Source: Gammaproteobacteria bacterium (GTDB lineage: Bacteria > Pseudomonadota > Gammaproteobacteria > Eutrophobiales > Eutrophobiaceae). From it: a stretch of DNA of 64,000 bases. Positions within the stretch are counted from its first letter, which is position 1, and each line of letters starts with the position of its first letter. The stretch lies in NCBI GenBank assembly GCA_965261165.1, contig OZ253445.1, positions 973,987 through 1,037,986 of the forward strand. Direction: 5' to 3'. Made by a program: the position numbers and the translations under genes. Below the pieces are notes generated by a model. That model saw only the letters and a list, made by a program, of their open reading frames with translations, was not told the DNA's origin and did not search any database. Below, piece after piece: positions 6,348 to 7,367 of the stretch.

Positions 6348-6686
6348 CTATCCGCCAGTAAATATGGTTAAGGAGACGCCTCCACAAACAACCCAATCAA
6401 TAAAAATAAAAAAAAGAATATATTTACGATAAATTAAAAATTTATCATTAACCTTAAAACATAAGGCATATAAGACAACACATAATAATACTATTGGAAT
6501 CAATGAAAACAGTGATTCACGCACAAGAATAAATGGAGATAATCCAAATAAAATTAATGCAGATATAGTAGTAAAGAATGTTGAAAAAGCTAATTCTTTA
6601 AATAAAAAAAACAATAAGAAGATTAGATATACACCAATTCCGGCATATAAAATATCTTTAAGAAAGCTTTTAATTCTTACATCCAT
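6348..6686 (-). CDS. Putative Rhs immunity protein, small polytopic membrane protein
   Basis: 112 aa, 3-4 TM helices, immediately downstream of the Rhs C-terminal toxin ORF on the same strand. Confidence 0.45.
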   Translation of the reverse strand: MDVRIKSFLKDILYAGIGVYLIFLLFFLFKELAFSTFFTTISALILFGLSPFILVRESLFSLIPIVLLCVVLYALCFKVNDKFLIYRKYILFFIFIDWVVCGGVSLTIFTGG

Positions 6687-6704
6687 AACAGAGTAATCAA
6701 GGAG

Positions 6705-7367
6705 CTACTTCTGATCATTAAAATAGTTATATGATTCAATAGCTGCTGGAATACCTTCAAATGCTGGACCACCTGTATCCCAGAATGTATGACCAAGAAC
6801 GTCTAACATATCATCCAAATCATATTCACTAACTGGTCCATCTGGCATGGGATATTCATCAGGGGTGCCTTTACAACCTGCATATTTATGATTTTCATCT
6901 ACAAGCCCTCCATCATCATCATAAAAGCATTCTGCAATTGGACCTTCATCACATTTATCATCCCTTACCTCAAGGAATCCCCTAAAACCACAATGGAATA
7001 CGCGAGGATCACCAACATAAGGTTTCCAATCAGAATTATGTATTGGCGGTAAAGATGGACACGATGCAGTTAATCCATTTATATCAACTCCAATAATTGG
7101 ATTTTGTTCTACATACCCATAGGTATTCATCCCACCTCTCAACCCTATCGGATCACTGGTAATATACCTGCCTAACTCAGGATCATAATATCTAAAGTGG
7201 TTGTAATGCAGATTAGTCTCCGCATCATAGTATTGTCCAGGAAAGCGAAGGTTGACACTGACACTGCCTGATGCTGGGGTATTCCCAAACGCCTCACCTT
7301 CCCAGCGCCAGATGACCTTACGTGCCGCATCGACAGGCAAGCCGCTCAAAGTAAAGAAACCATTCAC
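6705..7367 (-). CDS. Orphan Rhs C-terminal module: core tail (RVxWRxE..DPxGL motif) + about 130-aa toxin domain of unknown type
   Basis: [13 protein letters not shown]...[32 protein letters not shown] marks the end of the Rhs core; the following domain (TASCPS...[24 protein letters not shown]...GHTFWD...) has no motif I recognise; GTG start, no full-length rhs upstream. Confidence 0.65.
   Translation of the reverse strand: [220 protein letters not shown]

Follow-up and report, generated by a model that had tools for sequence, protein, structure and literature searches.

A probable orphan Rhs toxin-immunity cassette with a tip domain of a widespread, unnamed family in a gammaproteobacterial genome

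The subject of this analysis is a pair of adjacent genes at positions 6348 to 7367 of a 64,000-nucleotide stretch of gammaproteobacterial DNA, referred to below, at its full length, as the window. The two genes very probably encode a toxin and its cognate immunity protein, and the locus as a whole is best explained, with good though lesser confidence, as an orphan Rhs toxin-immunity cassette, in which the C-terminal tip of a truncated Rhs protein is a toxin of an unnamed family and a 112-residue membrane protein is its cognate immunity protein. An orphan Rhs tip with an immunity gene is a textbook type of system, and the locus changes nothing conceptually; the kind of system is already known, and what is undescribed here is a widespread toxin domain together with a family of immunity proteins.

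The tip domain and its family

The toxin open reading frame (ORF) lies on the minus strand (7367..6705, with the stop codon at 6705..6707) and encodes 220 amino acids (aa) from a GTG start. Residues 1-99 (7071..7367, minus strand) are a remnant of the Rhs core: residues 26-99 match TIGR03696 (Rhs_assc_core) with E = 1.5e-25 and 89.5 bits, the cutoff being 32.5, Rhs-like sequence begins at about residue 10, and the ORF contains [41 protein letters not shown]. Residues 100-220 (T100-K220; 6708..7070, minus strand) form the tip, which measures 121 aa and not the 130 aa of the original prediction, made from the DNA letters. The demarcation region, [10 protein letters not shown]...DPIGL...DINGL, falls within residues 1-99, and the motif for demarcation and autoproteolysis at the border between core and tip, PxxxxDPxGL...DPxGL, can be read from the sequence as [17 protein letters not shown]...GVDINGL; its second part is D-I-N-G-L in the window ORF, and D-x-x-G-L variants stand at the equivalent position in relatives. 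An in-frame stop precedes the ORF, and both the YD-repeat shell and the N-terminal delivery domain are absent from the protein, which is therefore an orphan and not a functional Rhs effector. The ORF had been singled out for its Rhs demarcation motif and its orphan state, and both descriptions are borne out by the family match and by the missing shell. The 220-aa protein and the membrane protein are called genes in NCBI/ENA data (P0003 and P0007), on one contig of 2,125,472 bp. The GC content is 45% for the core, drops to 40% for the tip and reaches 26% for the membrane gene (41% in the whole window), a gradient of the kind usually seen in imported cassettes.

The tip itself has no match in Pfam or NCBIfam at E≤1, its family has no match in PHROG, and in a PDB sequence search with the family profile no match fell under E = 0.08. 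No toxin family is matched by any of the 66 domain segments or 103 whole relatives assembled here, and our literature search found no description of the family. A word-indexed search retrieved no more than two relatives, which are 45-47% identical. With a profile of three sequences, exhaustive searching by HMMER yielded 264 cluster representatives at E≤1e-3; of these, 222 reach E≤1e-10 and 41 reach E≤1e-30. Against a hidden Markov model (HMM) made from 152 domain segments, the window tip scores E = 1.4e-40, comparable to full-length relatives. The guess that this is a toxin of unrecognised type thus held up: the putative toxin domain family comprises at least 264 clusters, is unnamed, is not represented by a profile in Pfam, NCBIfam or PHROG, and has no relative or neighbour among solved structures.

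In the 152-segment alignment, and in the numbering of the window ORF, the invariant or nearly invariant residues are C103, P104, W114, Y117, F124, H125, C126, G127, E133 and R135 in the first part of the domain; E146, C147, Y149, D150, L155, V156, D157, H160, C165 and G167 in the middle; and T168, P169, D/N170, Y172, H193, D197, G199, G200, G205 and S212 in the last part. At all of these positions the window tip agrees with the consensus, and it looks catalytically intact. Its one oddity is a 12-aa insert, residues 176-187, found in almost no relative. It is as rich in cysteine, histidine and acidic residues as had been noticed at first, with 5 Cys, 4 His and 25 Asp or Glu, against 8 Lys or Arg.

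The relatives, named in databases "hypothetical protein" or "RHS repeat-associated protein", always carry the domain at the C-terminus, behind various N-terminal partners. It is found on complete YD-repeat proteins of 1373-2362 aa with RHS_repeat, TEN_YD-shell and DUF6531 domains; full-length carriers with RHS_repeat and DUF6531 include P0019 (2362 aa), P0021 (1422 aa) and P0027 (1478 aa), and at five loci (L004, L017, L018, L022 and L027) the tip ends an ORF of 1373-1484 aa. Other fusion partners are PAAR_motif, Tox-PAAR-like, DUF4280 and eCIS_core (PF13699, formerly DUF4157). In the eCIS_core fusions, the domain begins directly after a junction of the form "...HExxH...QR|M-x-x-CP" (L019, L035, L050-L056, L061 and others). 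At several of these loci, further large genes follow, the products of which have, by eye, a similar N-terminal motif (…DDPLEKEAD…). In phage-like contigs, the domain stands behind a short N-terminal module ("LGYETYGP..."), in a gene between the large terminase and the portal genes (L001, 2871-3911; L008, 5279-6188; L009, 5833-6745); in these contigs, a four-TM protein of 115-120 aa follows, so that the putative toxin-immunity pair is phage-borne there. The family appears to use three delivery routes, namely T6SS-type (type VI secretion system) Rhs and PAAR proteins, eCIS_core proteins, and phages. Polymorphic toxins are defined by this pattern, in which a single cassette occurs on many delivery heads (PMC3482391).

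A domain that is similar by its description is PT6, one of nine new polymorphic-toxin domains reported in a preprint (10.1101/2021.10.19.465003) and represented by Moraxella canis WP_078255899.1. It is linked to DUF4157/eCIS_core, annotated as Rhs, toxic only in the periplasm, of unrecognised fold and of broad environmental distribution (10.1101/2021.10.19.465003). Compared by description only, PT6 is probably different from the tip family: its total of 85 aa cannot hold the conserved core of 103 aa, C103-G205, and we rejected it as a member.

The membrane partner

The candidate immunity gene (6348..6686, minus strand) starts 19 nucleotides (nt) past the toxin stop. Its 112-aa product has four transmembrane (TM) helices predicted by hydropathy, at residues 11-29, 32-50, 59-77 and 83-101, as against the three or four expected from the first reading. 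The genes that follow the tip were surveyed at 66 loci, taken from protein-collection, genome, viral and metagenome searches, and in the window. The neighbour was defined as the first ORF on the toxin strand with a length of 50 aa or more and a start in the interval from 80 nt upstream to 250 nt downstream of the toxin stop. The counts refer to loci that are non-redundant and have 350 nt or more of sequence downstream. An ORF of 85-175 aa with at least two predicted TM segments lies directly downstream of the tip at 27 of the 37 loci without eCIS_core, with starts that range between 58 nt ahead of the toxin stop and 114 nt beyond it; none of the 13 eCIS_core loci has such an ORF. In a gammaproteobacterial metagenome-assembled genome (MAG), for example, a 1422-aa Rhs protein is followed by a 119-aa four-TM ORF that overlaps the toxin stop (L004); an orphan tip in a Rhodobacterales MAG is followed by a 114-aa ORF (L003), and the tip of a phage-like contig by one of 115 aa (L001). 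A stand-alone variant of the domain, 150 aa long, is encoded on plasmid p1 of Microcystis aeruginosa NIES-2481 (NZ_CP025929.1; L067, 2653-3105), where the next gene is a very basic ORF of 66 aa and not a membrane protein.

The membrane proteins are related to each other, if distantly. All-against-all phmmer comparison at E≤1e-3 placed 18 of them, that of the window included, in one cluster; the matches of the window protein are L018 (3.7e-5), L057 (3e-4) and L004 (6.5e-3). In their alignment the four TM helices are collinear, TM2 contains an (S/A)-P-(F) motif, the loop ahead of TM4 is basic, and several members have T-G-G(A) at the C-terminus. A leave-one-out HMM gives the window protein 9.4 bits and its reversed sequence -3.4; shuffles that preserve composition average -3.5 (standard deviation 2.65), and 1 in 500 reaches the 9.4-bit score. 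BLASTP found no match between the window protein and the phage-contig partner, a relationship visible only via intermediates and HMMs. Position, size and topology, on the other hand, are strongly conserved, and it is on this ground that the pair reads as a toxin with its immunity protein. The original prediction had made the pairing depend on conservation of the membrane ORF beside homologous tips in other genomes, and such conservation is what the 27 of 37 loci and the 18-member cluster display. A matching family of four-TM immunity proteins would also provide a handle on the compartment in which the toxin finds its target.

Since phage-like contigs carry the domain followed by a four-TM protein of 115-121 aa, one could also think of a phage lysis cassette, a cell-wall hydrolase with its holin, that was captured by Rhs loci. 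We regard this as extremely improbable. The phage pair sits between the large terminase and the portal genes and not in the lysis module; the membrane proteins, by eye, end inside the last TM helix and have no charged C-terminal tail of the holin type; no PHROG lysis family is matched; and fusion to Rhs, PAAR and eCIS_core is a signature of exported effectors. Holin and endolysin were ruled out as identities by the gene position and the missing charged tail.

Structure, cysteines and possible mode of action

AlphaFold2 produced confident models for the window tip (pLDDT 92.3, pTM 0.83) and for a divergent member of the family, the domain of P0091 (pLDDT 95.4, pTM 0.84). In both, three short strands are combined with long loops that are ordered and with helices at the C-terminus, and the H193-x3-D197 pair is placed on a helix. 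Fold prediction followed by structural search, which had been proposed for the tip at the outset, thus gave good models and no significant neighbour among solved structures. The tip is acidic and hydrophilic, with a mean hydropathy of -0.66 and a net charge of about -17, and has no hydrophobic stretch, the maximum Kyte-Doolittle value over 19 residues being 0.24.

These properties bear on a second way of reading the pair, as a non-enzymatic toxin that depolarises membranes or forms pores and is countered by a polytopic immunity protein of the colicin type. Membrane-embedded immunity proteins are familiar from pore-forming colicins and from several membrane-targeting T6SS effectors; besides the colicin immunity proteins, examples are Tsi5 (for the Rhs effector Tse5), TsiV2 (for VasX) and Tmi (for Tme). 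All of these, like the protein in the window, are small polytopic inner-membrane proteins encoded directly 3' of the toxin, and immunity proteins with three or four TM helices are classic for this group. Sequence similarity to them was not found in a comparison limited to Pfam. The toxins that they neutralise are hydrophobic or amphipathic pore-formers, whereas the tip studied here is acidic and hydrophilic, appears to be stabilised by its cysteines, lacks a helical hairpin of either kind, is modelled mostly as loops, short strands and C-terminal helices, and has its conservation concentrated on His, Asp, Glu, Cys and Gly, as is seen in enzymes. A pore-former is accordingly very improbable, and we ruled it out as an identity on hydropathy. 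The membrane protein had been read at first as immunity to a membrane-acting or membrane-associated toxin; the immunity half of that proposal stands, and the membrane-acting half is doubtful for a hydrophilic tip that looks more like a disulfide-stabilised enzyme than a pore-former. The strongly hydrophilic character of the tip, and conservation that falls on His, Asp, Glu and Gly and not on hydrophobic surfaces, argue for an enzyme rather than a pore-former.

The cysteines offer a clue to the compartment. The tip family has four that are nearly invariant, and a subset has six. The additional C130 and C148 are both present in 12 sequences and both absent in 140; cysteines at 122 and at 127 occur in nine sequences each, which by eye are the same ones; and the Microcystis plasmid variant has lost both C126 and C165, with FHGG and AGMRG in their places. 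Gain and loss strictly in pairs suggest a disulfide between C126 and C165, and hence another between C103 and C147. An effector stabilised by disulfides would be expected to act in an oxidising compartment, here the periplasm of the target cell, so that we infer action outside the cytoplasm. Tips of the Tlde1 type, one of which belongs to the neighbouring module (see below), are known to work in the periplasm (PMC9638812). The membrane-embedded immunity protein, in turn, would be explained by a membrane-associated substrate, or by capture of the toxin at the membrane surface.

The steps can be put together as follows. In full-length relatives, the tip is found behind a YD-repeat shell and a delivery head of PAAR or comparable type. 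If it behaves like the tips of characterised Rhs effectors, it would be severed at the DPxGL-type motif and enter neighbouring cells by injection. In the target periplasm, it would fold around the two disulfides C103-C147 and C126-C165 and expose a putative active site made of the invariant H125, E133, E146, D150, D157, H160 and the H193-x3-D197 pair; the reaction would be hydrolytic and probably metal-dependent. The substrate, for instance a phospholipid or a wall precursor linked to lipid, would be located in the inner membrane or at its surface, and the membrane partner would block the action by binding the toxin or by shielding its target. As a whole, this chain, from periplasm to enzyme to membrane substrate, is possible rather than probable. 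The ORFs, the family, its fusion partners, the conserved neighbour and the paired cysteines are observed; compartment, enzymatic nature and target, as well as the part played by recombination and the silence of the window copy (see below), are inferred. The first link of the chain makes a prediction that is cheap to test, namely toxicity that depends on disulfides and is confined to the periplasm, and an activity that turned out to be new would add an antibacterial mechanism.

The cysteines can also be read differently, with the tip as a small enzyme or nucleic-acid binder that is stabilised by zinc and acts in the cytoplasm, and with the membrane protein blocking entry through the inner membrane. 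The tip is rich in Cys and His, fusions to eCIS_core and PAAR are compatible with cytoplasmic delivery, the best structural matches of the second model are WRKY zinc-finger domains (E 1.4-6.7, non-significant), and a "W-K-P-Y-x-G" strand superficially recalls, by eye, WRKYGQK. The WRKY matches are at chance level, however, and pairing of the cysteines (130 with 148 in 12 of 12 sequences, 126 and 165 lost together) is what marks disulfides rather than a tetrahedral metal site; cytoplasmic toxins, moreover, almost always have soluble binders as immunity proteins. We find this alternative quite improbable, and a WRKY-like zinc finger in particular was rejected on the chance-level matches and the paired covariation of cysteines.

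Several observations count against our explanation of the pair as a toxin with its immunity protein and of the tip as a periplasmic enzyme. The membrane gene is missing at 10 of the 37 non-eCIS loci and at all the eCIS_core loci. The membrane partners resemble each other weakly in sequence, the best outside match of the window protein having E = 3.7e-5 in a set of 54 sequences and 1 in 500 shuffles scoring as well, so that the case for pairing is built mainly on position and topology. The tip has no similarity to any enzyme of known mechanism, and its cysteines could bind metal instead of forming disulfides. Extracellular contractile injection systems (eCIS) are usually thought to deliver into the target cytoplasm, which fits awkwardly with a disulfide-dependent toxin. 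A scan for promoters and terminators, finally, carried no information, with 7 promoter-like sites as compared with 13 expected by chance from shuffled sequence.

One structural lead, to the AMOP domain, deserves separate mention. AMOP is an extracellular domain of the animal proteins MUC4, SUSD2 and isthmins, and domestication of a bacterial YD protein is accepted for the YD shell of teneurins. AMOP is not known as an enzyme or a toxin. In a Foldseek search with the model of the window tip, the top PDB match was the TSR-AMOP structure of human isthmin-1 (9c6t_B; E 0.53, probability 0.54, TMq 0.49); the search with the second model, the P0091 domain, did not retrieve 9c6t, its best matches being the WRKY domains at E 1.4 or worse. 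Pfam AMOP (PF03782) gave weak matches below the gathering score to 1 of the 66 domain segments (E 0.011) and to 2 of the 103 whole proteins (best E 0.027), a set that overlaps the segments, and gave none to the window tip. For direct comparison we used the AMOP of ISM1, residues 78-247 of 9c6t_A, the identity of which was checked: hhalign matched the tip family to it along 28 columns (P = 0.036), in which ECFYD..LVD..GTPD stands opposite [21 protein letters not shown], and hmmsearch found the same stretch with E = 0.007 in a single comparison. By eye, the two share a collinear series of motifs, SCP; W-K; [YH]-C; E/H-C-x-Y-x-D; L-[VI]; G-T-P-[DN]; and H-x3-D. Both also appear to be disulfide-stabilised domains of extracellular type, about 110-160 aa long; AMOP has eight paired cysteines in four disulfides (PMC12000326), as compared with four cysteines and two presumed disulfides in the tip family. 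In the literature collection searched, no paper links AMOP with Rhs, toxins or polymorphic toxins. All the scores are sub-significant and the fold match was not reproduced with the second family member, and we therefore keep AMOP kinship only as a weak lead. That the tip family is a bacterial counterpart, and possibly the ancestor, of animal AMOP, domesticated from an Rhs/YD toxin cassette, is decidedly doubtful. Were such a derivation true, AMOP would derive from an enzyme, or still be one, and a real link would be the first functional clue to an enigmatic animal domain.

The array and its surroundings

The studied pair is the second of two orphan modules on the minus strand. Module 1 (8323..9324, minus strand) encodes a 333-aa protein, of which 200 aa are Rhs core (TIGR03696, E 1.1e-24) and the tip is of the Tlde1 type (Pfam Tlde1_dom, E 3.4e-8, 34.4 bits with a cutoff of 30.1). 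A second copy of this protein, 98% identical (P0242), is encoded elsewhere on the same 2,125,472-bp contig. The 221-aa ORF that follows (7655..8320, minus strand) is presumed from its position to encode the module 1 immunity protein; its N-terminus resembles, by eye, a lipoprotein signal (…LISCASV…), and no Pfam or NCBIfam family matches it. Tlde1, with its partner Tldi1, is a T6SS effector of L,D-transpeptidase-like type that acts in the periplasm (PMC9638812). Module 1 and the studied module share the array and the kind of carrier, and the periplasm is also the compartment that we propose for the studied tip. The two tips have no sequence relationship, and the partner of the Tlde1-type tip is lipoprotein-like and not a polytopic membrane protein. 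A third, truncated Rhs fragment of 75 aa (5896..6123, minus strand; Pfam RHS_repeat, E 3.6e-5) lies beyond the membrane gene, and has its start in common with orphan module 1, the repeat 6025-6198 being 94% identical to 9226-9399. No further Rhs sequence and no main rhs gene is present in the window, where the longest ORF has 1170 aa.

The two modules are joined by homology in their cores. A direct DNA repeat of 264 nt, 7069-7332 and 8717-8980, is 95% identical and covers the common end of the core; at the protein level, 7059-7340 is 92.6% identical to the core of orphan 1. Since similarity to the module 1 core starts only at about 7340, some 90 aa of core survive in the studied module. About 140 nt upstream of this point, in the 283-nt spacer between the partner gene of module 1 and the studied orphan, sits a fragment of a group II intron (domains D1-D4, 7481..7607, minus strand; RF02003, 44.3 bits with a gathering score of 49, E 1.3e-7), and intron insertion or a decay event may have truncated the module. 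With about 90 aa of core, no shell, no convincing start signal (the ORF starts with GTG, not ATG, and has, by eye, no obvious ribosome-binding site) and an intron remnant in front of it, the window copy cannot be delivered. It is not an active effector as it stands, and is probably silent. The idea of an array of silent alternative tips, put forward at the outset, is partly borne out, by the two modules and the 75-aa third fragment; the array is interrupted by the intron remnant and lacks a main rhs gene in the window, so that it is a stranded, partly decayed one.

Reactivation of orphan modules is believed to occur when they recombine with a main rhs gene through the common core. The window copy would then be a silent spare, usable only after recombination via the 264-nt, 95%-identical core repeat, and its immunity gene may still confer protection when this toxin arrives from other cells. 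Orphan immunity genes can be useful on their own in other systems (PMC7043789, PMC10539506, PMC5727410), and the orphan rhs-CT/rhsI modules of Enterobacteriaceae and bee-gut bacteria, such as the orphan rhs of Salmonella Typhimurium (PMC7043789), the arrays of Snodgrassella and Gilliamella (PMC5727410) and Serratia Rhs with orphan immunities (PMC10539506), have much in common with those of the window. They, too, combine a short Rhs core, a variable tip and a small immunity gene, occur as tandem modules with core-derived repeats that allow recombination, and have tip and immunity genes with a GC content below that of the core. The window differs in that there is no full-length rhs, only about 90 aa of core are left, an intron remnant separates module 1, and the toxin domain belongs to no named family.

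Much of this would also be seen if both ORFs were decaying relics, debris in a reduced 2.1-Mb genome in which neither protein is made. The short core and the GTG start without an obvious ribosome-binding site fit such decay, as do the intron remnant upstream, the lack of convincing promoters and of a main rhs gene in the window, and flanks that by eye resemble fragments of lpd, transposase and methylase pseudogenes. Both frames are intact, however, and the tip keeps all the family-invariant residues with its match to the family HMM at E 1.4e-40; orphan immunity genes are commonly retained for protection (e.g., PMC10539506, PMC7043789), and the explanation as an orphan cassette already includes a silent toxin half. 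Decay of both genes is an unlikely alternative, although the one among the four rivals that we take most seriously.

The flanks themselves can be described briefly, by eye unless stated otherwise. After the third Rhs fragment, at about 5400-5950 on the minus strand, there are frameshifted pieces similar to the C-terminus of dihydrolipoamide dehydrogenase (…IVGPNAG…, …HPHP…), which look like a pseudogene. Upstream of the array, short ORFs similar to a transposase N-terminus and to a DNA methyltransferase fragment with a "DPPY" motif at 10163-10321 (minus strand) and 10479-10841 (plus strand) suggest a decayed mobile island. Farther away, the products of 14678-16240 (minus strand), 36641-38566 (plus strand) and 45436-48948 (plus strand), of 520, 641 and 1170 aa, are each, by exact look-up, the sole member of their own 90%-identity cluster in a collection of 15 billion proteins, and the source lineage seems to be without close sequenced relatives. 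On the other side of the array, at 3056-5222 (minus strand), a run of small ORFs resembles a heavy-metal handling cluster, with a four-TM protein, an outer-membrane-like protein of 292 aa, a protein of 152 aa of the CxxC metal-binding type and a Cys-rich protein of 117 aa.

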